A stretch of DNA of 64,000 bases from contig JBBINQ010000009.1 of NCBI GenBank assembly GCA_037443805.1, forward strand, positions 1,884-65,883. The letters are read 5' to 3'. The translations under genes were made by a program, and so were the position numbers. Positions 25,176-40,948 of this stretch are shown piece after piece. Positions within the stretch are counted from its first letter, which is position 1. Each line of letters starts with the position of its first letter. The notes beneath the pieces are model-generated. The model worked only from the letters and a program-made list of their open reading frames with translations, did no database searches and had not been told where the DNA came from. This DNA is from a candidate division WOR-3 bacterium (GTDB taxonomy: Bacteria; Hydrothermota; Tepidihabitantia; SM23-42; JAOAFX01).

Positions 25176-25197
25176 AAAGCATAGATTATAAAGATAC

Positions 25198-25222
25198 AAG
25201 GGGGCGTAAACACGCCCCCTTA
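25198..25222. terminator. Intrinsic terminator between convergent genes
   Basis: AAGGGGGCGT-AAAC-ACGCCCCCTT. Confidence 0.8.
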
Positions 25223-25276
25223 TTATTTTACAATATTAAAATTGGTTAAGAGAAAAGAGTATAAAAGTATATCTAA

Positions 25277-26134
25277 TTATTGAATTACAATCTCGATCTT
25301 TGAATATTTAGGTAATAATCCAGGAATAAATCTTGGCGCTGTGCTTACCCCTTTATCAGGCAATACAGCCCGTTTTGTAATCTCATTGAGTATTGCCTCG
25401 CCCCGTGAACGAGCCAGTGATTCAGATTCTGAATAAGAATAGACTACAACCTCTTTTTTGAACTTTTCTTTGACAAGATTGGCAATCTCCTCAATATAGG
25501 GTCCGGCTTCACTATGGAAACTATATGAGTCTTCATTGAACAGAACCTTTGATGCAACCGCAATAATTGTTGTTCCCTTTTCTTCATATACAATACCATT
25601 AAATTTATAAGCCCGTCCTGTGATACGCGTTGGATTTCCAATGGCATCAAATGCAGTAAAAACATAGTTATACACCTCACCCATATTACACATCTCACCA
25701 TTATCAGTCCTGCCATCCCAGTATAATGCAGGAGGTGGCATTCCCCTCTGGGCATAACGCCTCACCACATCACCCTTTGCATCAATTATGACAAGTTCCC
25801 AGGATGAAACTGTTTTTTCAAACTTAGGTATGAAAAGGGCAATACTACCATACATAAATCTTGCCACAAGCGGAACCCTTAAATATTCACTATGGAGATA
25901 TAGAATGGGTGTATTTAAAGCATCAATTGTGCTATATAATTTTTCATCAAAAATATACCGTTCTTTTGAGATTATTGAATCAAGCGGCGCAAATGGATTA
26001 AGTTCAACCTGTAAATATATCTTTGGGTCAGTAATCTTAAACTTTAATTCACCCTTAATAACCTCTTCACCAATTTCGTGTTCAGATTTTTTTGCTTCCT
26101 GTGATAATAAAAAAATCAGTAAAAGGAATTCCAC
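25277..26134 (-). CDS. Exported protein with FlgD-like Ig domain and degenerate OmpA-like C-terminus
   Basis: WELVIIDAKGDVVR...WDGRTDNG...AFDAIGN; the tail VLFNEDS...LARSRGEAI...KIEIVI echoes OmpA_C. Confidence 0.6.
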   Translation of the reverse strand: MEFLLLIFLLSQEAKKSEHEIGEEVIKGELKFKITDPKIYLQVELNPFAPLDSIISKERYIFDEKLYSTIDALNTPILYLHSEYLRVPLVARFMYGSIALFIPKFEKTVSSWELVIIDAKGDVVRRYAQRGMPPPALYWDGRTDNGEMCNMGEVYNYVFTAFDAIGNPTRITGRAYKFNGIVYEEKGTTIIAVASKVLFNEDSYSFHSEAGPYIEEIANLVKEKFKKEVVVYSYSESESLARSRGEAILNEITKRAVLPDKGVSTAPRFIPGLLPKYSKIEIVIQ

Positions 26135-26173
26135 TCTATCCTCCCTGATACCACAAAAAGTTATAATGTAAAA

Positions 26174-27079
26174 TTATCCACATACAAATCTAAATGTAAT
26201 AATACCCCATTGGATTTCCTGTTTGACACTTGCGGGCAGTGGTGCAAATAACCAAGCCTTTACTGCATTCACCACACTCTGGTCAAGGTCTGGATAGCCT
26301 GAAGAGATTTCAATCCTGATATTTTCACGCACACTTCCTTCAGGATTGACCTCAACCCTTATCTTAACTACACCAGATATGCCTCTCTGCAAACACCAGG
26401 CAGGATACTGGGGTAATAATTTTCGTAATATCTCACGGTCAGCAATTGGACCAGCAAGTGAGATGGCTGTTCCTTTGGTTTCCACCTTCAATTTTTCTTC
26501 AATTTTTGTCTCTACCTGTTTCCCAATCTGAGATGTGGGAGTAGTGGGCGGTGGTTTTTTATCTATCTTTATTGTTGGTGCGGTCGCCTGTTTACCAATG
26601 CCACCATAAACACCAATTCCGGTTCCACCCTCTGTGCCTGCGCCTCTGGGTAGATTCTTTGCCAGTGAAATTGGCTTCTCTGCAAGAATCTCTTCAGTGG
26701 ATTTCATTGTGCCATTTTTAGAACTACCAATCTTTATGACCTCACCTGTGCCTTCTTGTGGTGCATATCGTTCAAGGTCAATCTTTGCCTGACTGCGGTC
26801 AAGTTTCACATTCAAATCTATTGCTGGTGTTACAATATCACTTCCACCATAAGTACCAGAAGCAGGTGCTGGAGTCTCACTCACCTCTGCCCAGATTGAA
26901 CCTTTTGATACCACCTTTGCCACTTCAGGACGATAAGATTGGTCAAGGAATGTCACTTCTTTTATATCTTCATAATTACCTGTAGATGCTGAGCTCGGAC
27001 GGGAAAAGAGCAAAAACAATACAATGTGAATAATGATTGAAATAACAATACCGATATCCAATCTTTTATCTTTTAACAT
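26174..27079 (-). CDS. tonB: TonB family energy transducer
   Basis: TM SIIIH (SHLS-like), low-complexity linker, PQYP...G.V.IRVEV..G...SSG..LDQS....W.F.P C-domain. Confidence 0.85.
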   Translation of the reverse strand: MLKDKRLDIGIVISIIIHIVLFLLFSRPSSASTGNYEDIKEVTFLDQSYRPEVAKVVSKGSIWAEVSETPAPASGTYGGSDIVTPAIDLNVKLDRSQAKIDLERYAPQEGTGEVIKIGSSKNGTMKSTEEILAEKPISLAKNLPRGAGTEGGTGIGVYGGIGKQATAPTIKIDKKPPPTTPTSQIGKQVETKIEEKLKVETKGTAISLAGPIADREILRKLLPQYPAWCLQRGISGVVKIRVEVNPEGSVRENIRIEISSGYPDLDQSVVNAVKAWLFAPLPASVKQEIQWGIITFRFVCG

Positions 27080-27471
27080 TATTCACCCTTTGGTTTTTTA
27101 GTGGCACAGGCAATGCGCTTTGCGCCTGCCGCCTTTATCTTAGCAAGGATTTCAAGCACATCCTTGTGCAAAACAGTCTTATCTGCCCGAATAACAATCA
27201 ATTGATAAGGGTCCTGTTCTACAGCCTGCCTTACAATACTCTCAAAATTTTCAGGTGCTACTGGTTGGTCATTTACAAATAATCTCTGGTCCGCAGTATA
27301 AGTAACAGTAAAATTCTCTTCGGTCTTTGCCTCAGCCGTGTGTGCCCTGGGCACCTCAACTGGTGTATTGGTATGGGTCATCGTCATCGGTGCAAGAATC
27401 ATCATCATTAAAACAACCATCAAAGCCACTGCTGCCATTGGTAGAATATCAATGTTATCCATTCTCTTCAT
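27079..27471 (-). CDS. exbD: ExbD/TolR family protein
   Basis: IDILPMAAVALMVVLMMM TM (canonical Asp apparently Ala), IRADK. Confidence 0.85.
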   Translation of the reverse strand: MKRMDNIDILPMAAVALMVVLMMMILAPMTMTHTNTPVEVPRAHTAEAKTEENFTVTYTADQRLFVNDQPVAPENFESIVRQAVEQDPYQLIVIRADKTVLHKDVLEILAKIKAAGAKRIACATKKPKGE

Positions 27472-27881
27472 CTTCTGCTCCTTAATAAGGCTAATTCTCC
27501 AGCACCTTTCTGTTTTGCCAGGTCAAGAATCTGGATTACCCTTTCGTATGTAACCTCAGAATCAGTAGAGATAATCACCCTTTTTTCCAGACTTCGCGCA
27601 AGAAGTTGCGGAAGCAATTCTTCTAACTTTTCATAACTGACCAGTTCTTCATTTAAGAGTATCCCACCATCACTCAATAAATGGATATTCACTTTAATAT
27701 CACTTACCTCAGCAGCAGAACCTGAAGCCACACCTGGCGCATTCACAAAAATGCCGGATTCAAAAAATAGCGGTATTGCGACAATAAATCCTATAACCAA
27801 AGAAAGCGCAATATCCACCAGGGAATTGAGAATCAAACCCTGGGGTTCTGCACCGAAATTTAATCGCTTTCTTTTCTTCAT
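27468..27881 (-). CDS. exbD: ExbD/TolR family protein
   Basis: LNSLVDIALSL TM with conserved Asp; V.YERVIQILD. Confidence 0.85.
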   Translation of the reverse strand: MKKRKRLNFGAEPQGLILNSLVDIALSLVIGFIVAIPLFFESGIFVNAPGVASGSAAEVSDIKVNIHLLSDGGILLNEELVSYEKLEELLPQLLARSLEKRVIISTDSEVTYERVIQILDLAKQKGAGELALLRSRR

Positions 27882-27906
27882 AATAATATCAAACCCATTT
27901 CATATC

Positions 27907-28614
27907 TTAGAACTTCCAGCTCGTATCTTCAGCAGGTGGTTGTGGCGCAGGCTTTGGTGCTGGTGCTGGCTCAGGATTCACGCTTCCAGATTTTTTCTTT
28001 AATGTATCTAAGAGCACAATAAGTTTATCAGCGGCACCATCAAGTGCCATTGCTAATTCATTACTCTTTTTTGTATAATAATTGTAGAAAAATAGTGTAG
28101 GAATACCGATAAATAGTCCAAATGCAGTTGTCAATAGTGCTTCAGCAATACCTGCTGAAATTACTGCAGGACCGCCAGACCCGGTAATGGAAATATTGTG
28201 GAATGCCCTTATCAATCCAGTAACCGTGCCTAAAAGTCCTAATAAGGTTGCTGCATTTGCCAGTGTTCCCATACCGCCAAGATAACGGTCAAACTTGAGT
28301 TTTTCTTCAATAATATAGCTTGATAGCACATCATACAGATTCTCTGCGTCAAGATGCTGATTCTGCAGGGCAACAGTGAATAGCCCGAACAATGGATTCT
28401 TTTTTTGACTGGCATAGGCAAGGGCTCCATTTACGCCCTGACTTCTCAGCACCTGGCTAAAACGCAAAAATCCAGTGCGCGTATCAAAACTGTGCCTTAC
28501 AAAATATAAGAACCGCTCTATTATTAATGCCAGTGCAATAATAGAACATACTAACAGAATAAGCATCACAATACTGTTCTTAAATACATCAACCAATGGT
28601 TGTCCAAGTATCAT
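27907..28614 (-). CDS. exbB: MotA/TolQ/ExbB proton channel protein
   Basis: LLGLLGTVTGLIRAF, GIAEALLTTAFGL. Confidence 0.93.
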   Translation of the reverse strand: MILGQPLVDVFKNSIVMLILLVCSIIALALIIERFLYFVRHSFDTRTGFLRFSQVLRSQGVNGALAYASQKKNPLFGLFTVALQNQHLDAENLYDVLSSYIIEEKLKFDRYLGGMGTLANAATLLGLLGTVTGLIRAFHNISITGSGGPAVISAGIAEALLTTAFGLFIGIPTLFFYNYYTKKSNELAMALDGAADKLIVLLDTLKKKSGSVNPEPAPAPKPAPQPPAEDTSWKF

Positions 28615-28641
28615 TTTTTACCTCCTATGTAACTTGTTTTT

Positions 28642-31600
28642 TCATTTAAGATAAATCACCTTTTCTATCTTCTGGTAATTATCGGCCTCTAAATTCATAA
28701 AATAGACACCAGAAGATAAATCCTTGGGCACAAGCAAAACTTCATTATTACCAATCTTCGCCTTTTTCAATTTTTGTTTATCAACCAATCTACCTAATAC
28801 ATCATATAACTTGATTGTAATAGGTCGCTCATCTGGAGAATTGAAACGAATCCGTAAAAGACCCTTTGTTGGATTTGGAAATATTCTTTCAAATGAGAAT
28901 GTTTTTGAAATAAGTCCCTCTTCGCCCATTATGCCACCTGCCACTTCTCTTTCAATCTCGCAAGGAAACTCATAAAGCCCAATCTCACTGCATATAACCC
29001 GCTTGCCTTTTACTTTATTGAATTCAAGAATAATCTCACCATTCGCATAAGATTCTTTTTTTAACCAGATTGATTTCCTAACTAATTTATTTGGAGTAAT
29101 GAATATAGTATCCAAAGGTGTGCCATCAACAACCATCGCCTGAATTATCCTTCCAATCCCCTTTTCGTCAATAGGTTTCTCGTCGGTGTCATTCTGAACT
29201 ACACCCGCGTTGTCATGCCGAACTTGTTTCGGCATCTCATTTTGCTCATTATTTATGATTTGAATATTGGAATTTGTTTGGGATTTGGGATTTGGATTTT
29301 GGGATTTTTTCTCTTCAATTGCCTCCAATTGCCCCAAATTGCCTTTAATTGCTTCATTTCTGAAGTAATACGCCAAATCCAGCCGATACTCTTTTTCCTG
29401 GTCCAAACCTGTAAATCTATATCGTAAATCCTCGTAACCCCAATCCGTAGTCTCGTAAGGCTTAGTCCCAAATTTCCAATAACCATCCCTTTCAAGGGTA
29501 TATGGCGATTGGACAGGCTGACCCAAATCCACAAATATCTTTGCCACCGGGTCAACACCAAGTCTTTGAAATTTAATTGAATAGGGAATTGTATCACCCT
29601 CGGTCCAGAGACAATATAATTTTGCAGAGGCGGTATCTACCAAGGCATAGGCACTATGGGGAAATACTGAAGCAGTAGAAGTATTAGAAATATTCACTGG
29701 TGTTGTCCAGATTCCGGCAGTATCAACGAATTTGCTCAGATATATCTCCCAATTGCCCGATGAATTATCCTGCCACAGACAATAATGGGCACCAGCAAGG
29801 GTTGGAAATTTTGATTCACCAACTGTACTCGCAACTTTTTTAACTGAATCCCAACCCACATCGGTCTTCATTCTGCTATAAATATCCAAATTGCCCAGCG
29901 AATCTCTATTCTGCCAAACCGTATGTATATTTGTGCCGTAAAGGTCAATCACAGGGTATAACCTCTCATTGGTTCCTGTAGTATAAATCGTATCCACACC
30001 AAGCCAACCAGTTGAATCCTTCTCTTGATAACAGATGCACTTTTCACTCTCCCAAATTATATGCAAATTTTTTGATAAATCAAGTGTTAGTGAAGGTGTG
30101 CGACAGAAGGTATTGGTCAAAAGGGTCTCAGAAATAGCTTCATCAAAATACTCCCGATGGAATTTCAAATAAATTAAGTCGCCGGTATCTGAAGGCAACC
30201 AATAATATTGAGTAAAGACGATGTGAACCGTGTCAGTAGTATCAACCACCATTGAAGGTGGCGAAACATTTACTACCGGTATGACAATGGTATCAGGTGG
30301 TGCCCAGCTTGCAGTCCAATAAGTATAATAAATATTTGAACCATCCACCCAACTGGCACAGGGATTGCCCGCAGTATCAATTGCTAATGCAGGATACATA
30401 CCCGGACCACCAACGAGCGCTGATGCTGAAAAACTCTTGCCACTATCTGAAGAATAACTATAGTAAATACCCGCTTGAGTTAACCAGCCTTCATTGGCAT
30501 AAACAAAATCAATTTTTTTGCCTTCATTATCACTTATTATTTTATGCCCGGAATTATAGGCAGTTGCCAGAGCAAAATCCGAGGCGACAAAAAACGGCAC
30601 AATCACCGTATCCTCATTAGAAAATCCACTTTCGTTTTTGTTTGTATCAACCGCCGAGACAACATAATAATAGGTCTTACCTAAATAAAATACTGAATCA
30701 ACAAATGTTGTATCTGGCTTGAATACCAAATCAAGTGGCAGAGTATAACTCCCCGAAGTCTCTGAGCGATATACCTTATATAACTTGAGGTCACCATCCG
30801 GTGACGAACGCCAGAGCAGTGATACCTTTTGGGCAATTGAATCATAACTTGCCACAAGATTTGTGGGCACAGCCGGTGGAATATTGTCAATAAATACCGA
30901 AACTTGATTGGAAAAACCACCTTCATTGTTTAAATTGTCATAAGCGGTAGCAACATAATAATTCATCCCCTCTAAGGGCAGGGTGTCAATAAAGGTCGTC
31001 TCTGGTGCCAGAATTGTAGCATAAGGAGTCGTGCCATATTGATAAGAAGTAGCCGAGCGGTAAATCTTATATCCAACAAGGTCGTGGTCGGTATTCTGTT
31101 TCCAGGTGAGTCTTACCTTTTTTGCCGGCAACTTTCCTCCAAGAACTTCACCCTGCAAATTCTTTACTATTGCCGGGGGTGTCTTCAGGGTATCACCAAT
31201 GTATAAATAGATCTCATTATCGTGGCCATCCCAGGCATCATAGACCACCAGTCCCTGATGCATACTAATCCGATAACTATCTGAACTTCTCTCTAATAAC
31301 TTTTTAATTTGTTGACCATCGTAATAAACTGGATAATATACAGCACCCAATTGTAGCCATACTGCCTGAGTATTTTCTACCCGCCAATTCCAGACTACAA
31401 AATCAGTGGTTGAATAACCACTAACCAAAATATTATCCTGCCATCCATCATAATAATGGAGGCGCTGTAGACCGGTGCCACTATAATAATCATGCCACAT
31501 CACATCACCATTCTGTATCTCGGGCCAATAGATGCCATAATTAATATAGGGTAAAACACTCAATTGCCGACCCCCGACACCATCATAAACCCAGACCGCG

Positions 31601-33693
31601 ATCGTTAAGGTATCCTTATTCCAGGTGTATCTCATCCAGGCAGATTGTCCCTGTGACACGGAAGGCATCGCATTGATACTGCTATCCATAAAACTCGTTA
31701 AATTCCATACCCCAAAATCACCACGCAAATAGATGTCTTTGGTATATACTGCCCGACTATCCCCCAAAAACCCAATATTTTTCCGGGCATTTTTAAAACC
31801 ACGCTCAAACCAAAGCGAAATACTATTATTTCTGAAACCATTAAGATTAAAATCACCTTTCAAACTTGCCGTTTTTCCATGTTCCCAGACAATCATACTA
31901 CCATCAATATCAACATTACGACTGAAACCGTCCTTCACGGTATATTTATCAAGCAATAATAATCCTGCGCCAATCTGATAATACTGAACCCAAATTGTAT
32001 CGGGGTATCCACCGTCCCAACGAATTGTAGAATACATTACTATTCCGCAGGAATCAAAATCATATTGGTTACGGAAAAGACCCTCGGAAACGATTAGCTG
32101 GATTGAATTTCCATCCCAATACCATATGCGGTCGCCAGAAATGGCCTCCTCTCGCCAGGCAACCCGATCTTTCCAGACAATCGGCCAATTGTGAAAACCA
32201 TCGGTTGTGGTGTTGAGCCTCACGGTATTATGGGATGTAATGTTATGCAGTTTAAGATTGCTTTGCGTTGATGACAGAACCTCAACCCAGGCAATATTAT
32301 CACCATAAATATCTGGTCTAATATCCATTAAGTCGTTATCAGTTATTTTGATTACCCCGACCGTAAACTTCCAGGTATATGATGCAGGACTTTTACTACC
32401 GCTAGGCTCAAGACTCTTTCCAGCCAAATCCTTGATGCTATCTGACAACCAAACTTGAACTTCATCATGGAACCTAAATGAATCAACCTCAAGAATGAGT
32501 TTATGCAAACTGTCAACATAGGTGATGTTAGTGATAGAATAATAATATATTGTATCCACTAAACTTCTGATTTTGATATTGGTTGTATTAAGCGTTGCAG
32601 TATCCATCGCCTCTGAGAATACGCACCAGACCTCTTTCTCATCCCTGGCAATCCAACGATACCAATTATCAGGGTAGGTGTGTTTCACCCGGGGATTGAA
32701 GTTGTCAACATGAACCCGAATGGTTTCTGAATCGCACGGATTTGTGATCGGCCGGCAAATATCCCAGGCTTTGATTTTTACATAGAAATATCCGTCTTTA
32801 AATTTTGCCACCTCGATTGATTCGGCAGGCGGCTCATACCATTGCCGATTAATATGCTGCTTTGTATTCCAGTATTGATTTGCAGTATCCAAAAATGGTG
32901 CATTGGATACCCAATAATAGAAAATCCCATTCTCCCAATCAGTGCTATCATGATAAACTAATGCGTATCTGGCGGTAGCAGAATTTAATGGTAAAGAATC
33001 AAATTGATAAGAGTTTATTGCACCAGCAATAGGATTTTTTAATGTATCAAGAATCTGATACTGGATTTTATAAATGCCCATGCCTCTACCAGCATTGCCA
33101 CCCGTTGTATCAACTCTTGGGTCATAAACTCTGACGACGATATCTACTGAATCATTTAAGTTGTTTTTATCCAGGTGCGCACCACTTCCCTGGCGCTTAA
33201 AACTTACAGACTCAATAATCGGCGGAACTGTATCTAAAAATGGGCTAAGACCTGCAGAACGAAGGGGATTGAGATACTGCAACGTTGTAGCCTCTCTTTC
33301 AATTAGATGACAATGGGCTTTGGATGCAAAAATACGCCCAATAGTATCAACAAAAGCAGTGACAAAAGTTGATTCGGCGACTCTATTGGTAAGATGTAAG
33401 TAGCAGTAAATACTATCATTATCAAAAACTCCATTAGTAAAAGTATCTGTGGGATAATTATACCTCAATATCGTATCGCTCCTTAAAGAGTAAACAAGCC
33501 AGAATGAATCAGTCGGCACCGTAGTTTTAGGCATAATATCAACTCCAGTGTGGAAGCGAGTGCCTCTACTCTCACCCAGCGTAGCAATAACTTTATGTTG
33601 TTTATTGAATGGCTTCATAGGGTAATCATAGGCCACTAAAATAGTTGCAATAAAGACTCCTATTGTTAACACTAAGAAACGAATAAACCTCAT
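28642..33693 (-). CDS. Large secreted multidomain protein: M23-like peptidase, Ig-like, beta-propeller, FN3 repeats, T9SS-type CTD
   Basis: Signal peptide; RFHTGVDI (HxxxD), YLHL, HCHL (HxH); FSEAMD Ig; two YKIYRS...NE.GFSN FN3 repeats; FPNP...YDVLGR...GVYF...KVIYLK CTD. Confidence 0.75.
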   Translation of the reverse strand: MRFIRFLVLTIGVFIATILVAYDYPMKPFNKQHKVIATLGESRGTRFHTGVDIMPKTTVPTDSFWLVYSLRSDTILRYNYPTDTFTNGVFDNDSIYCYLHLTNRVAESTFVTAFVDTIGRIFASKAHCHLIEREATTLQYLNPLRSAGLSPFLDTVPPIIESVSFKRQGSGAHLDKNNLNDSVDIVVRVYDPRVDTTGGNAGRGMGIYKIQYQILDTLKNPIAGAINSYQFDSLPLNSATARYALVYHDSTDWENGIFYYWVSNAPFLDTANQYWNTKQHINRQWYEPPAESIEVAKFKDGYFYVKIKAWDICRPITNPCDSETIRVHVDNFNPRVKHTYPDNWYRWIARDEKEVWCVFSEAMDTATLNTTNIKIRSLVDTIYYYSITNITYVDSLHKLILEVDSFRFHDEVQVWLSDSIKDLAGKSLEPSGSKSPASYTWKFTVGVIKITDNDLMDIRPDIYGDNIAWVEVLSSTQSNLKLHNITSHNTVRLNTTTDGFHNWPIVWKDRVAWREEAISGDRIWYWDGNSIQLIVSEGLFRNQYDFDSCGIVMYSTIRWDGGYPDTIWVQYYQIGAGLLLLDKYTVKDGFSRNVDIDGSMIVWEHGKTASLKGDFNLNGFRNNSISLWFERGFKNARKNIGFLGDSRAVYTKDIYLRGDFGVWNLTSFMDSSINAMPSVSQGQSAWMRYTWNKDTLTIAVWVYDGVGGRQLSVLPYINYGIYWPEIQNGDVMWHDYYSGTGLQRLHYYDGWQDNILVSGYSTTDFVVWNWRVENTQAVWLQLGAVYYPVYYDGQQIKKLLERSSDSYRISMHQGLVVYDAWDGHDNEIYLYIGDTLKTPPAIVKNLQGEVLGGKLPAKKVRLTWKQNTDHDLVGYKIYRSATSYQYGTTPYATILAPETTFIDTLPLEGMNYYVATAYDNLNNEGGFSNQVSVFIDNIPPAVPTNLVASYDSIAQKVSLLWRSSPDGDLKLYKVYRSETSGSYTLPLDLVFKPDTTFVDSVFYLGKTYYYVVSAVDTNKNESGFSNEDTVIVPFFVASDFALATAYNSGHKIISDNEGKKIDFVYANEGWLTQAGIYYSYSSDSGKSFSASALVGGPGMYPALAIDTAGNPCASWVDGSNIYYTYWTASWAPPDTIVIPVVNVSPPSMVVDTTDTVHIVFTQYYWLPSDTGDLIYLKFHREYFDEAISETLLTNTFCRTPSLTLDLSKNLHIIWESEKCICYQEKDSTGWLGVDTIYTTGTNERLYPVIDLYGTNIHTVWQNRDSLGNLDIYSRMKTDVGWDSVKKVASTVGESKFPTLAGAHYCLWQDNSSGNWEIYLSKFVDTAGIWTTPVNISNTSTASVFPHSAYALVDTASAKLYCLWTEGDTIPYSIKFQRLGVDPVAKIFVDLGQPVQSPYTLERDGYWKFGTKPYETTDWGYEDLRYRFTGLDQEKEYRLDLAYYFRNEAIKGNLGQLEAIEEKKSQNPNPKSQTNSNIQIINNEQNEMPKQVRHDNAGVVQNDTDEKPIDEKGIGRIIQAMVVDGTPLDTIFITPNKLVRKSIWLKKESYANGEIILEFNKVKGKRVICSEIGLYEFPCEIEREVAGGIMGEEGLISKTFSFERIFPNPTKGLLRIRFNSPDERPITIKLYDVLGRLVDKQKLKKAKIGNNEVLLVPKDLSSGVYFMNLEADNYQKIEKVIYLK
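29187..29309. repeat. In-frame insertion of a GTCA-palindrome plus TTTGGGA-type heptamer array
   Basis: tgtcatgccgaacttgtttcggcatct at 29211-29237, partial copy tgtcattctgaac at 29187-29199, heptamers at about 29259-29309. Confidence 0.75.
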
Positions 33694-34907
33694 TGCCCAC
33701 CTCCAGCAATTTTATAGCAATAAAGGTTATTGCTATTGCTGACAATCAGATGCCTTCCATCATCAGTAAATCGTACATTAGGTGCCCTTTGCTGTTGAAT
33801 CTTTAATTCCATCTTCCAAACTATATCGCCCTTTTTATCAAAGAGATAGACAACCGAAGTATCACCGACTGGTAATTCTCTTGTGCCACCTCCATCTGCG
33901 CAAACTACAAATGCACCATTGGTGGATACATCAAGCGAATAAATTGAGCGAGTAAAGTTACTATTTATCTTTTTACCTATTTTATCAGCAGGATAACGCC
34001 ACAATAATTTACCTTCTTTAACACTGAAAAACCAAATACCTGACCAAGTAGCATAGACAGCTAAAAATTTCTCGTCGGGCGAAAATGATATAAAATGGGT
34101 TCCGGCCCCTATAGGTTTTTCCCAAAGTATATTTCCTTTTAGTGTGTAGAGAAAGAGGGTATTACCCCATTTTTTTCCGAAGCACGCGATGTAGCTACCA
34201 TGCGGCGAAATTCCTATTCCAGCGGCATGGGAATTTTCTATGCTCCTTTTCCAGATTTCTTTGCCTGTATCATCGTATAATATCACCCCAATCCCTGATA
34301 CATTTAAAGCAAAGACATTACTATTTTGAGCAACACTGATATAGGTAGACGGTCTCATATCACCATAATCAAAGATGAGTTTTCTCGTCCCGTCTAACTG
34401 CTCTAAAAATATTCTTGCATCTTCTAAAACACCGGATATAAGAAATGCTCCATTGTTCAGTAAAATACTGGGCTTGTAATTATCGGTAACCACTCGTATT
34501 GTAAGTAGATTGCCAGCTTTGTCATATACCTGAAATTCGCTCCCCTCCTGAATACGGCCATAGATTCCATAATGGTACTTACTTATTCCAATATATTCGC
34601 CATTTCTTGAAAATGATACACCATAAACCCAACTTTCATTCCAATTCAGTTGTAAACTTCTTGTGGATATTTCCTTTCTTTCTTTAGCTAAAAACTGTAC
34701 TTTATCAGCAGTAACAACCACTTGCAAAGCAGGCATACCATTTATTTCTGTAAGACTGAAGTCCGATACGGGAGATTCAAACTCCTTCTCCCACACCAAC
34801 TCCAGTTTTATTTGCGGCTCTGCCTGTGCGGAATCCTTCTCCTGGGCATAAAGCCCAAGGGTTGTTGCCATTAAGGCAATGATTGATACTAATAAAATTC
34901 GTTTCAT
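33690..34907 (-). CDS. Secreted WD40/PQQ-like beta-propeller protein
   Basis: GGAGG RBS before ATG 34907; signal peptide; repeated G..LW and FSPD.K blade motifs; ATGA overlap with the next gene. Confidence 0.75.
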   Translation of the reverse strand: MKRILLVSIIALMATTLGLYAQEKDSAQAEPQIKLELVWEKEFESPVSDFSLTEINGMPALQVVVTADKVQFLAKERKEISTRSLQLNWNESWVYGVSFSRNGEYIGISKYHYGIYGRIQEGSEFQVYDKAGNLLTIRVVTDNYKPSILLNNGAFLISGVLEDARIFLEQLDGTRKLIFDYGDMRPSTYISVAQNSNVFALNVSGIGVILYDDTGKEIWKRSIENSHAAGIGISPHGSYIACFGKKWGNTLFLYTLKGNILWEKPIGAGTHFISFSPDEKFLAVYATWSGIWFFSVKEGKLLWRYPADKIGKKINSNFTRSIYSLDVSTNGAFVVCADGGGTRELPVGDTSVVYLFDKKGDIVWKMELKIQQQRAPNVRFTDDGRHLIVSNSNNLYCYKIAGGGQ

Positions 34908-34926
34908 CTCAAACCTCCCCGTATAA

Positions 34927-35024
34927 CAAATACCTAAAGTCCAAAACACCTAAATACCTAAACCTGTCCTGAAATTGATTCAGGATACCTAAATGCCTAA
35001 AACCTGTCCCGATGAATATCGGGA
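34927..35024. repeat. Octamer array (AAATACCT) with two CCTG-initiated palindromes
   Basis: cctg-tcctgaa-attga-ttcagga at 34963-34985 and cctg-tcccgat-gaat-atcggga at 35003-35024. Confidence 0.7.
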
Positions 35025-35367
35025 ACTCTAAAAAATTATACGAAATATCCATAAAAACCAATGCTTGAAATTTTGGAATTTTAAATCTTGCATCCTCTAT
35101 TGAATCTGCATTTGCGGTGCCGGCAATGTTTATCTTTGTGAGCCAGCAGTTCTCCTGAATATTTGAAAGCCCATAGCCAAGTTAAGGCGGCACCGAGTCA
35201 CAGTTAGTGGCAATATACCAATTTCTAAAACGACTGGATAAAGAACCATCAATAGGATCAGCATAGGTAAGATAATATTTTAATAAATCTGCGCCTTCTA
35301 TTGTAACTCTCATCTCAAACATCTTGGATTTGAACCAATTGGATAGTATAAATTTTGCTTACCATCT

Positions 35368-37845
35368 TCACTTTTTTCCCTTCAGGCTATCCTGGGTGGG
35401 CTCAGTATTAGGTATTTCGGTTTCGGGCGTTACTGTAGAACCTGGCTCGCCAAGATACTTTTTACAAACATCAACATTATGCCGGGCATTGGCAAGATAT
35501 TGAGATGAAGGGAACGAATCCACAACTGCCTGAAAGTTTTTTAATGCCTTACCATATTCTTTTAAATTAAAATAAGAAGAACCTAAATTAAAATAGACTG
35601 CATCTTTTTCCTTCCCCTTGGGAAAATAGCTGAGATACCTTTCATAGAGTTCTACTGCCTTTTGCCAATTTTCTATATTTACTCCACATTCTGCAGCAAG
35701 GAGCAGGGCATCCGAAGAATAGGAAGACCCGGGGAAATTGACTACCACCTTGATAAACTCATCCATTGCCTGACTGTATTTTTTATCATCAAAATATTTT
35801 TGGGCAATCTGATATTGACCATCTGCGGCAAGCTCACTCTGGGGAAAACGTTCTACAAAATATTGCATTGCCTCTGTGGATTCAAGCCCTTTCTGGTAAT
35901 AACACATCTCCATCCCTTTTCTTGCAGCAACTGCTTCAGTAGCAGTAGGAAACAGGTCAAGGAATTTCTGAAATTCTCTTATTGCCTCATCATAGTTTTT
36001 CTGGTTGTAATAACTCTGGGCAATTGCCAGTTGTGATGAACGTGCATAATCATCATTGGGATGGTTTTCCACGACCCAGCGGAATAGACTCCTTGCCTTT
36101 TCATATTCCAGTGCTTTGAAATATGTATCGCCCGCACGGAATCCAGCCTCTGCTGACTTTTTTGCCATCGGAAAATTACTGATTAATTTTTCCCAGGACT
36201 CAATCGCATTTGCATAATATTCTAAATTGTAGTATGACATTCCGGCATAAAAAAGTGTAGGAACAGCACACCGCTCATCTTTGGGAAAGGTATTATATAA
36301 TACTTCAAATGTTTCCCGCGCCTTCATATAATTTTGCTGATTAAACTGGGCATATCCAAGACCAAGGTATATTGCCATTAGCAATGTTGAATCTTCATAA
36401 GGCACCTTGCTCATACCCGCAAAAATATCCTCTGCTTCCTTTGGTCGGCCCTGATTATATAAAGCATAAGCCAGACCGAGCCGTGCATAAGGCGATACTT
36501 CAAGACCAAAATAATCCTTGGTGACCTTTAAATATGTCTTTTCTGCTTCACTAAAATTATTCTGGTAATAATATGCCTCAGCCAGGAAATAGAGTGTACG
36601 TCCTCGCCATTCACTCTTTTCTTCAGGAAAGTCTTTTATATATTTACTCCCAAAGGTCACTGCATAATCAAAATTTTTTAAATTGTATAACGCATACAAA
36701 AGCATTGTAGCACCGGGTTCGCGCAAAGCAGAATTAGGATACCGCGATAATAGTGATTCAAAAAACTTGATGGCATTGAGATAATCTTTCTTTTGAAAAT
36801 AGATCATTCCCGTAAGATATTCACCCACACTGGCAAGTTCACCACTGGCAAACATTGTTGACAGCTGGGATGATGATGTCAATGCCTGGAGCGTATCACC
36901 ATAAGCGAGTAGTGCCTTGGTCAGTTGCAGGTTCGCATAAGAAGATATCATTGTGTTGGGATAATTTGCACGCACCCTCTGGAATGCACTCACTGCACCA
37001 AGCCCATCATTGAGATTCATCCGGCAGATACCGAGAAAGTATCCAGCATGGGCAGCAAGAAGATTATCAGAATGGCGTGTCAAAGGTAAAAGATGCTCTG
37101 CTGCACCGGCAAAATCTCCATAATGGATCAAGGATGCCGCATAAAAGAAATGGGCATAATCAATCAAGGGTGATTTGGGATAATTGGCAATAAAATCACG
37201 GAATTTGACCTTTGCGCCATCAAAATCATTATTAAAGAACAATGCCTCAGCCCTTGAAAATTCAGCAAGCACCGCAATCGGCGTATTGGGTGACTGGTCA
37301 AGAATCTCTTTGAATGCCTTTATTGATTCAAGGGGATTGCCTAAACGGGATAATGCCTTACCATAATAAAATTTTGCCTCAAGCAGTTTTAATCCTTCAA
37401 GTTTTTCCTTTGCTTCAACATAACTACCACGAAAATAATAGAGCACACCCAGGGCAAAATTTGCACGGTCTTCTTCCTGATATGCGGGATTTTTTAGCAA
37501 TCTCTGTAAAACCTGCTCTGCTTCTTTAAAATTGCCCTGTAAGATATCAATCATTCCAATCGCATAAAGACACTCTGGTTCAAGATAGGCAAGATTTTTT
37601 CTTCTCAAAATCGTCTCAAAATGCTCTTTTGCATGGTCATAATCCTTTATATTAAAATAACATTCTGCCACACGAAACCTAATTTCATCCTCAAATTCAG
37701 TCCCGCCGTATTTTTTCAGAATAACATTAAAATATTTTAGGGCATCAGTATAATTCTCCTGCAGAAATAGTCTATGGGCAATCTCATAATCAGTAACCAG
37801 TTGATTATAGTCAGTAAGGGAAATGAGTGTAATCAAAATCAGCAT
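35368..37845 (-). CDS. Long periplasmic tetratricopeptide-repeat protein (BamD/CpoB-like repeats)
   Basis: Many A..YF...Y..A...F......YP.S repeats; short signal peptide. Confidence 0.9.
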   Translation of the reverse strand: MLILITLISLTDYNQLVTDYEIAHRLFLQENYTDALKYFNVILKKYGGTEFEDEIRFRVAECYFNIKDYDHAKEHFETILRRKNLAYLEPECLYAIGMIDILQGNFKEAEQVLQRLLKNPAYQEEDRANFALGVLYYFRGSYVEAKEKLEGLKLLEAKFYYGKALSRLGNPLESIKAFKEILDQSPNTPIAVLAEFSRAEALFFNNDFDGAKVKFRDFIANYPKSPLIDYAHFFYAASLIHYGDFAGAAEHLLPLTRHSDNLLAAHAGYFLGICRMNLNDGLGAVSAFQRVRANYPNTMISSYANLQLTKALLAYGDTLQALTSSSQLSTMFASGELASVGEYLTGMIYFQKKDYLNAIKFFESLLSRYPNSALREPGATMLLYALYNLKNFDYAVTFGSKYIKDFPEEKSEWRGRTLYFLAEAYYYQNNFSEAEKTYLKVTKDYFGLEVSPYARLGLAYALYNQGRPKEAEDIFAGMSKVPYEDSTLLMAIYLGLGYAQFNQQNYMKARETFEVLYNTFPKDERCAVPTLFYAGMSYYNLEYYANAIESWEKLISNFPMAKKSAEAGFRAGDTYFKALEYEKARSLFRWVVENHPNDDYARSSQLAIAQSYYNQKNYDEAIREFQKFLDLFPTATEAVAARKGMEMCYYQKGLESTEAMQYFVERFPQSELAADGQYQIAQKYFDDKKYSQAMDEFIKVVVNFPGSSYSSDALLLAAECGVNIENWQKAVELYERYLSYFPKGKEKDAVYFNLGSSYFNLKEYGKALKNFQAVVDSFPSSQYLANARHNVDVCKKYLGEPGSTVTPETEIPNTEPTQDSLKGKK

Positions 37846-37847
37846 AA

Positions 37848-39188
37848 CTACTCCTGGGGCACAAATTGAATTTCACCCTGTGGACCGAGCGTAACAATCT
37901 TTACCAGAAAATCGCTGAATGAGATTCTCTCCTTACCTTTATCAATAATAATAATTTCATAGTAGTAACGACCATCAGCAACGAGCCTGCCCACATCATC
38001 AAGTCCATCCCAGGAGAGCCGTAGTGGTGGGTCATCCCAGCCTGAGTATGTTCTCACGACCTCGCCATAACTATTTTTTATCAGTAATTGCCAGCGTTCC
38101 ACTTCCCGTTTTGTTGTATAATGAAGGTCAAGCCATGCAACATTCTCTTTTCTACCGGGCGCCGGTGAAAATTCCTTAGGCGTTGAAGTGACCCAGGTTC
38201 TAAATCCACCAAATTCAATAAATATACCGACCTTATGACGATACGGCAATAGATAATTTGATTTATGGTGTAGCTCTATGGCATAATCAATGCCCAATGA
38301 CATATTACCGAAAAATCTTCTCACACCGAGCCCCGCATTTAATGTGTTCTCATCAAACCCTGCACGGAGAATCAATATTGGGTAGACCGGCACAAATTCA
38401 AAACCGAGATGCGGTTTGACCCCTGAATAATCAAGAATGTTTTTCACCAGGTCAGCAACAATAACTGCCCTTCCCTGATACAATTTTATTGCTCCACCAA
38501 ATCTAAATGTAACAGGGAATTCGTCAGTGGCTCCACCATCCAGATATTGCAGTTTTGGTCCCAAAATGTTTTGAACAGATACACCTAATGTATAATTATG
38601 TCTTGGAAAAAGAAAAATTCCCAGGTCGCCACCAATACCCACACTGCCATACTGAGCAATCTTACTCGTGACAAATTTCAGATTTGTTCCCATACTCAGA
38701 ACATCACCAGTAAGGTAGGCATAAGATAAAAGTAAACAACTCTGGGCAAAATAGTATGTGCCATAGGGATTCATATTCTCATCCCTTGAATCAATGCCCT
38801 TGGAGCGGAAATGTATGACATTCGCACCAAATGTTCCAAACCGCCTTGTGGGCAGGGCATATCCAAGATAACCGAGCTGATGCCCATAAAGGTCAAGATA
38901 AGACGATTTTATATTATGAGAATATAACTGAGCAAGACCAGCAGGATTGTAATAAATTGCCTCAGCATCATCTGCGAGTCCGGTAAATGCCTTGCCTAAG
39001 GCAGTGGTTCTCGGACTCATTCCATAATTGAAAACCGCACCAGGAAGACCACCATCCTGTCCGTAGAAAACAGTAGGTAGTAGGTAGAAAACAGTAGGTA
39101 GTAGGTAGTAAGTAGTAAGTAGTAAAAAGGAAAAAATTGTGCTTAATTTTGGGCTTTGGGTTTTGGGATTTGGGATTTGTTTTACCAT
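37848..39188 (-). CDS. PorV/PorQ (UPF0164)-like outer-membrane beta-barrel with C-terminal FlgD-like Ig domain
   Basis: SPRTTALGKAFTGLADDAEAIYYNPAGLA signature; LRAG...GLG...IDYA; WDGLDDVGRLVADGRYYY. Confidence 0.82.
   Translation of the reverse strand: MVKQIPNPKTQSPKLSTIFSFLLLTTYYLLPTVFYLLPTVFYGQDGGLPGAVFNYGMSPRTTALGKAFTGLADDAEAIYYNPAGLAQLYSHNIKSSYLDLYGHQLGYLGYALPTRRFGTFGANVIHFRSKGIDSRDENMNPYGTYYFAQSCLLLSYAYLTGDVLSMGTNLKFVTSKIAQYGSVGIGGDLGIFLFPRHNYTLGVSVQNILGPKLQYLDGGATDEFPVTFRFGGAIKLYQGRAVIVADLVKNILDYSGVKPHLGFEFVPVYPILILRAGFDENTLNAGLGVRRFFGNMSLGIDYAIELHHKSNYLLPYRHKVGIFIEFGGFRTWVTSTPKEFSPAPGRKENVAWLDLHYTTKREVERWQLLIKNSYGEVVRTYSGWDDPPLRLSWDGLDDVGRLVADGRYYYEIIIIDKGKERISFSDFLVKIVTLGPQGEIQFVPQE
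39063..39180. repeat. Two heptamer arrays (AGTAGGT-type and TTTGGGA-type) encoding the signal-peptide region
   Basis: Translates as QIPNPKTQSPK and LLTTYYLLPTVFYLLPTVFY, including a 21-bp duplication. Confidence 0.8.
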
Positions 39189-40834
39189 ATTACACCTACC
39201 CTGATATGTTTTTCTAAGAACACATTGGTATGGATATAACCTTTTAATAAAACATAATAGACACCACTTGCCACTCTATGACCCTTGTCATTGGTTCCGT
39301 CCCAGGTCAGATTATTTATTCCGATTCTTGCACCATTTTGCCCGGCACTTATCTCTTCATGAAGGACACGATTACCAAAGGCATCATAAATTGCAAAGAT
39401 AACATTACAATTCTGTTGCAAATAATAAACAAAACGCGTGTATGCTTGATTGACCCTACCAAAAGGATTTGGATAGGCAATGATATTGCCCTCCATAACT
39501 GAAGAATCCGGGATAATCACATAGACCGTTGTTGTTTCTGCATAGTTATCAGCACTTATCATAATTGAATCAAGTTCATTAAAATAACCACTTGTGGCAG
39601 TAAATTGAGATTGGCACACACCCTGGAAGTTTGTTTGAACTGTATCATATTGAGGAATAATATATCCATTTCCACCAATGACCGAAAAATAGACCCATTT
39701 ACCAGAAATGGGCTCATTATTACGGTCATAGGCTGTGACCGTTATGTATGCTATCTCACCGGGAGTAACTGTATCTGGATTCACCACAATGTCAAAACTA
39801 TCTGCCCGGGCAACAACCCTTAAAAAATTGTCATAACTATTATAATTATTATTTAAATCACGGGCATACAAGAACTTTTCACCACTCGTTGAAAAATTTG
39901 CATTGAATGTGGCAACACCATTAGAAAGATTCTGTGCTGGTGGATTGGAAAATCCTGAAGAACCTGATACCTGTATTGAATAACCTGAGACATTGGTCTT
40001 ATTCCACATTGAATCTGTGGCATAGACCGTGATTTGAAAATCTTCAAGCACATACTGGTCTATTGGTGCGCCAGACTTTCCTGGTGTGTTCGTGGTATTG
40101 GTCGTGGTATCGCCAGCAAGGTGTGTTTCACCAGGAAGTAACACGAGCAATTTAGAGTATGTGCCTGGATAAATATAGATACTACTTGAAGTATCAGGTT
40201 TAATGCCTGAATTTGTTAGGTCACTTATATAAAAACGTTGGTTTCCCGCAGTCCTGAATGCATAGCTGATATCGGCGTTTCCATTGCTTAGGCGTATATC
40301 CATTGTCGGGCTGAATCCATCTGAACTGGTAATGCGTATAGAATCATTTGCCGAGTTTATTCTATTGCACCATTGGTCTGTGAGATAGATTGATGCATTG
40401 AAAAAATAACCTGCCTCCTGGCTCGTGGGATTGTCAATTCTTCCACTCTGGTTTCCCGGTGCATAGGTCTGGCCCGGCAATATTGAGATAACGCGATAAG
40501 GAGAATTCGGCACGACCTGGAATTGATTTGATGTTCCTGATGCACCACTACCTTCGCACCTCAGCACAATATTATCACTGGCAATGGATACCATTATGCT
40601 ACCCTGCCAGGAACTGTTACCATTAAAATAGACAATCGTATCCGGGCTCACAGGATATGAAATATTAGGAACATATAGGTGTGCAGAACCATTATAAGGA
40701 ACTGGTTGTCCTGAACTATTTAGCGCATAGACCGTAATCTGAAATGCCACACCTGCGGTTTTGGGTGAAGTGATTACATCAAAACCAAAATGGTCAAGCT
40801 GACCTATCATTAATAAACTCAAAAAATATATCAA
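39182..40834 (-). CDS. Secreted Ig-repeat protein with C-terminal FlgD/T9SS-CTD-like domain
   Basis: Duplicated LPG.T..PG...G module; AYPNPF...IYDAFGNRV...WDGTNDKGHRVASGVYY. Confidence 0.75.
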   Translation of the reverse strand: MIYFLSLLMIGQLDHFGFDVITSPKTAGVAFQITVYALNSSGQPVPYNGSAHLYVPNISYPVSPDTIVYFNGNSSWQGSIMVSIASDNIVLRCEGSGASGTSNQFQVVPNSPYRVISILPGQTYAPGNQSGRIDNPTSQEAGYFFNASIYLTDQWCNRINSANDSIRITSSDGFSPTMDIRLSNGNADISYAFRTAGNQRFYISDLTNSGIKPDTSSSIYIYPGTYSKLLVLLPGETHLAGDTTTNTTNTPGKSGAPIDQYVLEDFQITVYATDSMWNKTNVSGYSIQVSGSSGFSNPPAQNLSNGVATFNANFSTSGEKFLYARDLNNNYNSYDNFLRVVARADSFDIVVNPDTVTPGEIAYITVTAYDRNNEPISGKWVYFSVIGGNGYIIPQYDTVQTNFQGVCQSQFTATSGYFNELDSIMISADNYAETTTVYVIIPDSSVMEGNIIAYPNPFGRVNQAYTRFVYYLQQNCNVIFAIYDAFGNRVLHEEISAGQNGARIGINNLTWDGTNDKGHRVASGVYYVLLKGYIHTNVFLEKHIRVGVIW

Positions 40835-40920
40835 GAGCTCCTCCTATGTTGAATAAAATTCATTGAAAAGATTAAAGATTTAAGTCTACTGGATTTCGGC
40901 ATTATCATTTTTATACTGCC

Positions 40921-40948
40921 ATTATATATAAAATATCCCATTTGTCAA
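40921..40948 (-). promoter_or_regulatory. sigma70-type promoter of the envelope operon
   Basis: TTGACA-N16-TATAAT. Confidence 0.75.

Follow-up and report, generated by a model that had tools for sequence, protein, structure and literature searches.

What does a proton-driven motor of the Ton/Tol class do when its genes are joined to those of an outer-membrane barrel related to PorV, instead of to a TonB-dependent receptor? The question is raised by a run of ten genes, here termed the operon, in a 64,000-nucleotide stretch of DNA (the window, to which all coordinates refer unless a contig is named) from a candidate division WOR-3 bacterium, corresponding to positions 1,884 to 65,883 of contig JBBINQ010000009.1 in assembly GCA_037443805.1. 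The genome comprises 2.23 Mb, is 97% complete and carries the label G000 in our comparisons. The operon codes, in this order, for an Ig-like protein with a C-terminal domain (CTD) of the type linked to type IX secretion (the secretion system being abbreviated T9SS), the barrel, a tetratricopeptide repeat (TPR) protein, a β-propeller, a 1683-aa CTD protein, ExbB, two ExbD proteins, TonB and a secreted protein of 285 aa (F285). The reading favoured here, to which we give about an even chance, is that the operon codes for a dedicated module which spans the envelope, is powered by protons and is accessory to type IX secretion.

The ten genes are co-oriented on the minus strand, with short or overlapping junctions, between a sigma-70-type promoter (TTGACA-16-TATAAT, 40921..40948) and an intrinsic terminator hairpin (25196..25223), both on the same strand, although the terminator can be read on either; the latter has a stem of 12 bp, 7 of them GC pairs, and a T-rich tail after it. 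The promoter agrees with the consensus in 12 of 12 positions, ranks best among the 60 sites found in 24800-41500 and lies 87 nt 5' of the first start codon, which confirms its placement at the head of the run in the first-pass annotation of this DNA. The anatomy that this annotation had described, consisting of an Ig/CTD protein, a PorV/PorQ-like barrel with FlgD_ig domain, an 825-aa TPR protein, ExbB, two ExbD proteins, TonB and an FlgD_ig-like protein, is borne out by family profiles and translations. The genes that it named lie at the right coordinates, but it had omitted the propeller (33690-34949) and the 1683-aa CTD protein (28642-33693). Directly upstream, on the same strand (40945-43010), a gene for a ROK-family sugar kinase accompanies an alternative GlmU-type gene (TIGR03991); the pair ends 3 nt before the promoter, so that read-through into the operon is possible.

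The motor itself is encoded by four genes. The ExbB/TolQ-type proton-channel subunit (235 aa, 27907..28614) matches PF01618 with 95.1 bits, while its scores on the tolQ and exbB models (98 and 69 bits, respectively) are both below the equivalog cut-offs; it is one of three ExbB-type genes in the genome. The first ExbD/TolR paralogue (137 aa, 27468..27881; PF02472, 65.6 bits) carries an Asp inside the membrane helix (LVDIAL) and the second (130 aa, 27079..27471; PF02472, 75.0 bits) carries one at the start of the helix (NIDILP), and the two are divergent enough to match each other only at E 1.6e-4. The TonB-family force transducer (301 aa, 26174..27079) exhibits a TonB_C domain at residues 223-298 (PF03544, 53.0 bits) and an N-terminal membrane helix with a nearly invariant His18. 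The domains of a TonB system, i.e., ExbB, both ExbD proteins and TonB_C, are all above their family cut-offs, and ExbB and both ExbD proteins score higher on the TolQ/TolR models than on the ExbB/ExbD models. The functional importance of the membrane Asp of ExbD and of the His in the TonB helix is known from the E. coli proteins. Judged by the Asp in both ExbD proteins and the conserved His in TonB, the motor parts of the operon look functional.

The barrel protein (446 aa, 37848..39188) combines a PorV/PorQ-family outer-membrane barrel (FadL fold) with a C-terminal FlgD_ig domain at residues 355-411. Over residues 54-238 it passes the PorV/PorQ family model NF033709 (104.4 bits vs a cut-off of 90), yet it fails both the PorV equivalog NF033710 (28.9 bits vs 250) and the PorQ model (81 vs 220). 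The genome holds four further PorV-family genes, and the PorV equivalog model prefers one located at C20:66-1073 (123 bits) over the operon barrel (28.9); by these profile scores the latter is not the best PorV candidate of its own genome. Its 311 homologues at E<=1e-10 are annotated as PorV/PorQ family or FlgD Ig-like proteins. An AlphaFold2 model built with 18 orthologues (pLDDT 83) predicts a barrel, followed by an Ig sandwich at residues 351-431, and the predicted fold is that of a barrel with an N-terminal hatch, as in solved PorV or FadL structures. In a Foldseek search with this model, the PorV chains of two SprA translocon structures appear at the top (8gl6_F, E 3e-10, TM 0.62; 6h3i_F, TM 0.63), and FadL (TM about 0.55) and TodX come next. 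The first-pass annotation had considered that a FadL-type importer would speak against its proposal; the fold ranks the PorV chains first, with FadL close behind. The predicted signal region of the barrel protein (39050-39188) contains a tandem duplication, YYLLPTVF YLLPTVFY, which does not occur in the orthologues, and the true start may lie further downstream of the annotated one.

The first gene of the operon codes for an Ig-like secreted protein of 550 aa (39182..40834), which ends in a CTD/FlgD_ig domain (33.4 bits vs a cut-off of 27, residues 477-528). Its translation contains the motifs AYPNPF, TWDG and ASGVYY, and its C-terminus matches the CTD part of the PorU model (C9:41134-41430) as well as the CTD region of PorZ, whereas its matches to Big_1 and Invasin_D3 are both below the Pfam cut-offs. 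A type A CTD sorting domain is hence indicated in this protein by FlgD_ig together with the PorU/PorZ CTD match, and in the 1683-aa protein by PF18962. In other genomes the first gene of the cluster is likewise a homologue of the Ig protein, with lengths from 213 to 2831 aa. On the basis of its domains and position, the 550-aa protein is a probable T9SS cargo and surface subunit of the module.

Two further proteins would belong to the periplasmic side. The 825-aa TPR protein (35368..37845) is composed of repeats resembling those of YbgF/CpoB and BamD (TIGR02795, 256 bits in 8 stretches; TIGR03302, 231 bits); N-terminal signal peptides are found in its orthologues, and in syntenic loci its gene follows that of the barrel. 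The BamD-like repeats, together with matches of the barrel to BamG, raised the alternative of an accessory complex of the β-barrel assembly machinery (BAM), which was rejected because the structural match is weaker than that to PorV and no linkage to BamA was observed. The second protein, F285 (25277..26134), is a secreted protein with a disordered N-terminus, an FlgD_ig-like sandwich (weak FlgD_ig match, 19.9 bits) and an OmpA/MotB-like C-terminal domain; it is encoded in single copy in the genome and closes the cluster in syntenic loci. Its N-terminus holds a conserved EE-x-IKG motif, and I34, W112, P134 and W139 are invariant in the F285 alignment.

The AlphaFold2 model of F285 (pLDDT 79) exhibits a disordered N-terminus, an Ig sandwich at residues 98-172 and a C-terminal alpha/beta domain, the last of which superimposes on OmpA, MotB and Pal-type wall-binding domains in Foldseek comparisons (TM 0.52-0.75 on the target, rmsd about 3 Å; 6u83, 3s0h, 4b62, 3oon and others). 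No Pfam or NCBIfam family matched this tail, while PF00691 was found in one F285 homologue, and JGI labels some homologues 'MotB'. The OmpA-like tail claimed in the first-pass annotation is therefore supported by the OmpA/MotB fold of the model and not by any family match in the protein itself; as predicted, it is real at the level of fold. In about 50 genomic rows among the matches listed, the F285 profile also aligns with the Ig domain that the 3' end of the barrel gene encodes (E 1e-11 to 1e-18), and the search of WOR-3 genomes with this profile returned 55 further matches beyond those listed. By these profile comparisons the Ig domain of F285 and the C-terminal Ig domain of the barrel are mutual nearest relatives.

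Whether these genes belong together was assessed from 20-kb stretches around the barrel gene in 20 WOR-3 genomes of about 19 families, one of which ended at a contig edge, leaving 19 informative loci. The order Ig - barrel - TPR - ExbB - ExbD - ExbD - TonB - F285 is kept in 17 of these 19, and the linkage is therefore more than chance. The records of the relatives bear the names 'candidate division WOR-3', Stahlbacteria and TA06. The eight-gene cluster was also found in eight loci whose record titles are Goldbacteria/Goldiibacteriota, Spirochaetia, Methylomirabilis and Firestonebacteria, the cluster being rearranged in Firestonebacteria. The scan for related loci employed two peptide patterns derived from a 6-row alignment, and its reach ended short of distant phyla such as Fibrobacterota. 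Synteny thus links the PorV-like barrel and TPR genes to exbB-exbD-exbD-tonB across the phylum and beyond, as the first-pass annotation had anticipated.

The conserved arrangement bears on the simplest alternative, namely that the operon serves ordinary TonB-dependent uptake, being an FCB-type exbB-exbD-exbD-tonB cluster with a TPR gene that acts through receptors or through the FadL-like barrel, the Ig proteins being neighbours or substrate-binding accessories. The family matches of ExbB, ExbD and TonB_C are those expected of such a system, the importers FadL and TodX are structurally close to the barrel, and the genome codes for six Plug-domain receptors. All six, however, lie on contigs other than that of the operon, in agreement with the earlier statement that the run lacks a TonB-dependent receptor, and none of the 20 WOR-3 loci contains a receptor gene in or near the cluster. 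The same genome also carries a second exbB-exbD-exbD-tonB operon (C5:56468-69300, equivalent to L015:5468-18300), and this one does adjoin a receptor: it is followed by an unknown protein of 344 aa, a SusC-like receptor (CarboxypepD_reg, Plug and barrel), an unknown protein of 986 aa, a PorV/PorQ-family barrel (200.8 bits) and an 882-aa LVIVD/C39-like CTD protein. A PorV-family gene is consequently found near a Ton motor twice within one genome. Five non-motor genes, moreover, are kept in fixed order with the motor across phyla.

A published counterpart lends the uptake explanation some weight: the Fibrobacter succinogenes genes FSU_2397 and FSU_2398 (TPR), next to FSU_2400-2403 (ExbB, ExbD, ExbD, TonB), are up-regulated on cellulose, the TPR proteins sit in a surface multiprotein complex, and TonB-dependent import of cellodextrins was proposed (PMC6851124). 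Against uptake stands the occurrence of the same outer-membrane module beside a different motor. In six Elusimicrobia-type loci (L108:2-19387, L109, L111, L112, L115 and L117) and two partial ones (L113 and L119), a homologous module lies beside MotAB. Their gene order comprises a giant Ig protein with an FlgD_ig end, a fusion of barrel and TPR, a 640-aa FliG_M/FliG_C/TPR protein, a protein of 1300-1650 aa without assignment to any known family, MotA and MotB, the last with plug and OmpA domains. The Ig protein of these loci is homologous to that of the operon at 122 bits, and the best G000 match of the barrel-TPR fusion is the operon barrel (116 bits). From these homologies, one outer-membrane module is seen to travel with two different proton motors, and this pairing therefore makes chance neighbourhood or plain nutrient uptake hard to reconcile with the data. 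To our knowledge, neither is a MotAB motor with a FliG-like protein employed to drive uptake, nor does FadL-type transport need TonB. Ordinary uptake is accordingly regarded as improbable. The Elusimicrobia-type clusters are non-flagellar, with a FliG-like protein and MotAB wired to an outer-membrane barrel, and are worth a separate study.

A different use of the same parts would be a second tether resembling Tol-Pal, in which the motor would regulate a bridge between the outer membrane and the wall, with the barrel, the TPR protein (CpoB-like) and the OmpA-fold protein (Pal-like) as its parts, and would serve envelope integrity or division and not a surface protein. The higher TolQ/TolR scores of the motor subunits, the eight YbgF/CpoB-like units of the TPR protein and the OmpA/MotB fold of F285 all agree with such a function. 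The fusions of barrel relatives point in the same direction: in other phyla their C-termini are fused to TPR (six cases), SLH (five, one of which also with LysM) and SH3 (one), and within the same genome a barrel relative is fused to OmpA (C68:2203-3879). Modules of these kinds are present in the operon as separate proteins, and barrels fused to the wall-binding SLH, LysM, SH3 or OmpA domains look like tethers from the outer membrane to the wall, as far as their domain composition goes. Such barrels are found at L137, L138, L140, L144, L152 and L125 (record titles Margulisiibacteriota, Saganbacteria and others), in addition to that on C68. In T9SS, too, PorE has been interpreted as a CpoB-TolB-Pal-like fusion in a survey of periplasmic force transducers (PMC12204202).

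It speaks against a tether of this kind that a Tol-Pal cluster is already present on contig C24, with Pal (114 bits), YbgF (112), TolQ, TolR, TolA and TolB (341.6). The candidate that the operon is itself the Tol-Pal system was ruled out on the strength of this full cluster and of the lack of any TolB or Pal match in the conserved core by family profiles, the latter as noted in the first-pass annotation. With Tol-Pal on C24 and the Ton operon on C5 beside a receptor, the other Ton/Tol jobs therefore already have candidates, and the operon is, by gene content, the third motor of the Ton/Tol family in this genome. Wall binding by F285 is only predicted from its fold, and a secreted Ig/CTD protein, which is always the first gene, would be needless for a pure tether. 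The tether overlaps the reading of an accessory trans-envelope module and differs from it only in output; as a separate explanation it is considered unlikely.

The CTD of the first product leads to the question of how the operon relates to type IX secretion. SprA (C69, 327 bits vs a cut-off of 200) and PorU (C73, 474 bits vs 420) are both present in the genome, in which the CTD portion of the PorU model has about 50 further matches. No match in the genome at E<=0.1 was obtained for GldL, GldM (two models) or GldN (TIGR03513, TIGR03517 and PF12081 were among the models, those of GldL and GldN being used without a positive control), and jackhmmer searches with Bacteroidota GldN, GldM, GldL and part of GldK yielded nothing for L, M and N even at E<=10. 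The single GldK-like gene of the genome was pursued as a sign of a hidden gldKLMN operon and dismissed, as it codes for an FGE-type lipoprotein (C5:99313-100137, 112 bits vs 350) with unrelated neighbours. Nor was a PorE equivalog found in the genome, the best score being 93 bits against a cut-off of 600. Instead of a complete canonical T9SS with GldLM, the genome search that the first-pass annotation had called for thus returned SprA and PorU, with no GldL, GldM or GldN. GldM was likewise found in none of 41 WOR-3 genomes, a sample that included genomes of families f9, f11 and f14 and none of f7 and f28. As a positive control, the GldM model was matched in 4 of 21 genomes of another phylum, after two other control sets had produced no match, one with 5 genomes (three under Bacteroidota record titles) and one with 20 from the phylum to which G151 belongs.

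These results could be taken to mean that a Ton-like motor energises type IX secretion in WOR-3 in place of GldLM/PorLM, for all CTD cargo, through SprA and the barrel. In favour of this explanation are the presence of SprA, PorU and the CTD matches without a detectable GldLM or PorE, the PorV/PorQ family membership of the barrel with PorV as its best structural match, and the finding of SprA-like open reading frames (1440-2115 aa) in 10 of 10 tested non-WOR-3 genomes which carry a form of the module. The distribution within the phylum argues otherwise. SprA was detected in 146 of 151 sampled WOR-3 genomes (in 133 above the cut-off), whereas the F285 profile, used as the marker of the operon, was matched in 98 of 151, three of them weakly, and a hand count put barrels of ortholog level (E<=1e-30) at about 86 of 151. 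F285 is missing from entire families (f14, 0/14; f7, 0/5; f28, 0/5; f11, 0/4; f9, 0/3), where the barrel is at paralogue level or not found, and yet nearly all of these genomes contain SprA (f14, 14/14; f11, 4/4; f7, 4/5; f28, 4/5; f9, 2/3), some of them being 99-100% complete. Missing as it is from many SprA-positive WOR-3 genomes, the operon does not qualify as the general motor of type IX secretion. The occurrence of the module only where SprA occurs, with SprA often present without the module, is what would be expected if the first product is a T9SS cargo and the module an accessory user of the system. One further locus, G010:C28:2349-3207, contains an F285 gene broken by 3 TAA stops in a genome where no barrel orthologue was found, and looks like a case of decay of the module.

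The other PorV-family genes of the genome, one of which is the better match to the PorV model, also speak against the operon as the energiser of secretion, and the same applies to the remaining CTD proteins of the window. A Porphyromonas-type peptidyl-arginine deiminase with CTD (6053-7735, minus strand) and an S8 subtilase with CTD (52678-55428, plus strand) are encoded in it, and nothing ties either gene to the operon. The inference made in the first-pass annotation therefore has to be divided. Its proton-driven machine stands, on account of the linkage to ExbBD-TonB and of the homologous module beside MotAB and a FliG-like protein in other phyla; its proposal of a motor that replaces GldLM for the CTD proteins of the window is not supported, in view of the counts of SprA and F285, of the poor match of the barrel to PorV and of the lack of any link to the deiminase or the S8 protease. 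A general energiser of WOR-3 type IX secretion is accordingly held to be very doubtful.

The two genes that separate the TPR protein from ExbB require a separate account. They code for a β-propeller (PQQ_2/BamB-like, 419 aa, 33690..34949; PQQ_2, 39 bits) and an M23-like protein with a T9SS type A CTD (1683 aa, 28642..33693; Por_Secre_tail PF18962, 49.7 bits, residues 1604-1680), a paralogue of which on C88 carries Peptidase_M23 at 30.2 bits. The pair was found in none of 35 other loci with the TPR-ExbB junction (19 WOR-3 and 16 full-cluster loci), among them those of four relatives with 81-88% identical barrels (L075-L077 and L081). Paralogues or fragments of the two genes occur on C88 (as a pair), C53, C41 and C7, and in other lineages the same junction between TPR and ExbB holds other extra genes. 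Neither direct nor inverted repeats that would explain the insertion were found to flank the 6.7-kb segment. The absence of the pair from the 35 loci and the different extras at the junction elsewhere therefore indicate a local insertion that stands outside the machine; by these comparisons the propeller and the 1683-aa gene are a genome-specific joint insertion and not part of the conserved core.

How might the conserved core function as an accessory trans-envelope module? Proton flow through a pentamer of ExbB and a heterodimer of ExbD would be converted into a pull on the TonB-like protein, the C-terminal domain of which may reach the outer-membrane assembly under the barrel, composed of the Ig domain of the barrel, the TPR scaffold and F285. 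A periplasmic position of the barrel's C-terminal Ig domain is presumed from the usual topology of outer-membrane barrels, and the TPR protein would serve as a scaffold, for which the OmpA-like domain may provide a hold on the cell wall. As a putative TonB box, the invariant Ile of the F285 strand EE-x-IKG is a candidate for the contact with the transducer. The Ig/CTD protein would be exported by SprA/PorU and then held at the surface by the barrel, in the manner in which PorV- and FadL-family barrels hold surface proteins, so that the motor may act on this surface protein or on the barrel, by moving, exposing, tensioning, gating or releasing it. The output may be adhesion, surface movement, tethering of the envelope or a specialised transport step.

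Several considerations weigh against this reading. All contacts among the operon proteins are deduced from gene order, fusions and folds. The succession ExbB-ExbD-ExbD-TonB beside a TPR gene is a common layout, and this TonB could simply serve the six receptors encoded elsewhere in the genome. In 2 of the 19 informative loci (G050 and G055) the Ig, barrel and TPR genes stand without a motor nearby, with F285 on another contig, and the module as a whole was not found in about one third of the sampled WOR-3 genomes, in which it must be dispensable. The Ig-repeat character of the 550-aa protein depends on Pfam matches below the cut-offs. Finally, OmpA_C domains usually bind peptidoglycan through the pattern GHTD...N..LS..RA, and this pattern is not evident in the sequence of F285.

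The interest of a dedicated, motor-driven module lies in what it would add to a familiar engine. The Ton, Tol, Mot, Agl and GldLM motors may be viewed as one proton-driven engine that has been varied, with a different load in each case, and the cluster would add a load for which no description was found: a barrel of the PorV/FadL family, its Ig, TPR and OmpA-like partners in the periplasm, and a surface protein that carries a CTD. The combination is conserved over at least four candidate phyla, and lineages have apparently swapped one engine for another, which would constitute a rare natural experiment. Type IX secretion in WOR-3, for its part, seems from the genes detected to run on a reduced part list with no known motor. 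As SprA is near-universal in the phylum, GldL, GldM and GldN are not detectable in this genome and the operon is no general substitute, the question of what energises type IX secretion beyond the Bacteroidota can now be tested directly. Fibrobacter succinogenes, which is culturable and has a published TPR-ExbB-ExbD-ExbD-TonB cluster tied to its cellulose-binding surface complex (PMC6851124), may offer a genetic entry point.

A bolder extension, which is speculative and judged rather unlikely, would regard the operon as a member of a class of motor-driven surface machines, not recognised before, in several uncultivated phyla, in which an Ig-repeat CTD adhesin on a PorV-family barrel is driven either by ExbBD-TonB or by a MotAB/FliG-like rotor. 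Were this true, such machines would be present in WOR-3, Goldbacteria, Firestonebacteria and Elusimicrobia-type lineages, and would represent a third solution to the mechanics of surface adhesins beside the GldLM-SprB gliding of Bacteroidota and the Agl-Glt of Myxococcus; type IX secretion in these phyla would then proceed without any GldLM-type motor.

Among the known systems, TonB-ExbB-ExbD has ExbB and ExbD in common with the operon, together with a TonB_C protein whose N-terminal helix bears a conserved His. It differs in that the operon has no linked receptor, which is replaced by a fixed set of barrel, Ig, OmpA-like and CTD components, while the other Ton operon of the genome adjoins its receptor. 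Tol-Pal resembles the operon in its TolQ/TolR-like motor, its TolA/TonB-like transducer, the CpoB-like TPR repeats and an OmpA-fold periplasmic protein; in the operon, however, the core is devoid of TolB, F285 bears an Ig domain and lacks the lipoprotein cysteine, and a barrel and a surface protein are added. The force-transducer survey describes clusters of TPR, tolQ-like, two tolR-like and vWA-transducer genes, of unknown function (PMC12204202).

Comparisons that start from the barrel lead to BamG, a FadL-family 14-stranded barrel of the BAM complex in Bacteroidota, which anchors the surface protein BamH and is not a transporter; it provides a precedent for a FadL-family barrel as the structural anchor of a surface protein (PMC12611786). 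The operon barrel nevertheless matches it with a TM of only 0.40 (9hiv_F) and 0.38 (9n2d_B), compared with 0.62 for PorV, no linkage to BamA or BamD was observed, and BAM operates without a motor.

In composition the operon also resembles the Agl-Glt system of Myxococcus, which combines one TolQ-like and two TolR-like subunits with TonB-like and TPR proteins, outer-membrane barrels and a surface adhesin. The operon would be a motor-driven, envelope-spanning combination of the same types of part. Its barrel, on the other hand, is of the PorV/FadL type, WOR-3 bacteria are not known to be motile, and the only Glt-related match, NF033768, reached 17 bits vs a cut-off of 40 in a profile scan that did not go through the remaining Glt families individually.

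The T9SS, finally, in which PorV is described as a shuttle (abstract of PMC12618676), differs from the operon in its motor, which is GldLM and not ExbBD-TonB, in the PorV/PorQ equivalog cut-offs that the operon barrel misses, and in its distribution, the operon being missing from roughly one third of the SprA-positive WOR-3 genomes. Both nonetheless contain a barrel of the PorV/PorQ family and domains of the CTD type, their proton motors belong to one 5:2 superfamily, and the domains of PorE (TPR, propeller, Ig-like and OmpA_C) recur in the operon as separate proteins. No paper was found in which ExbBD-TonB or MotAB/FliG-like genes are linked to a barrel of the PorV family. Taken together, the cluster is genuine and conserved, and it adds to the Ton/Tol/Agl class of motor-driven envelope systems a variant that has apparently not been described before.

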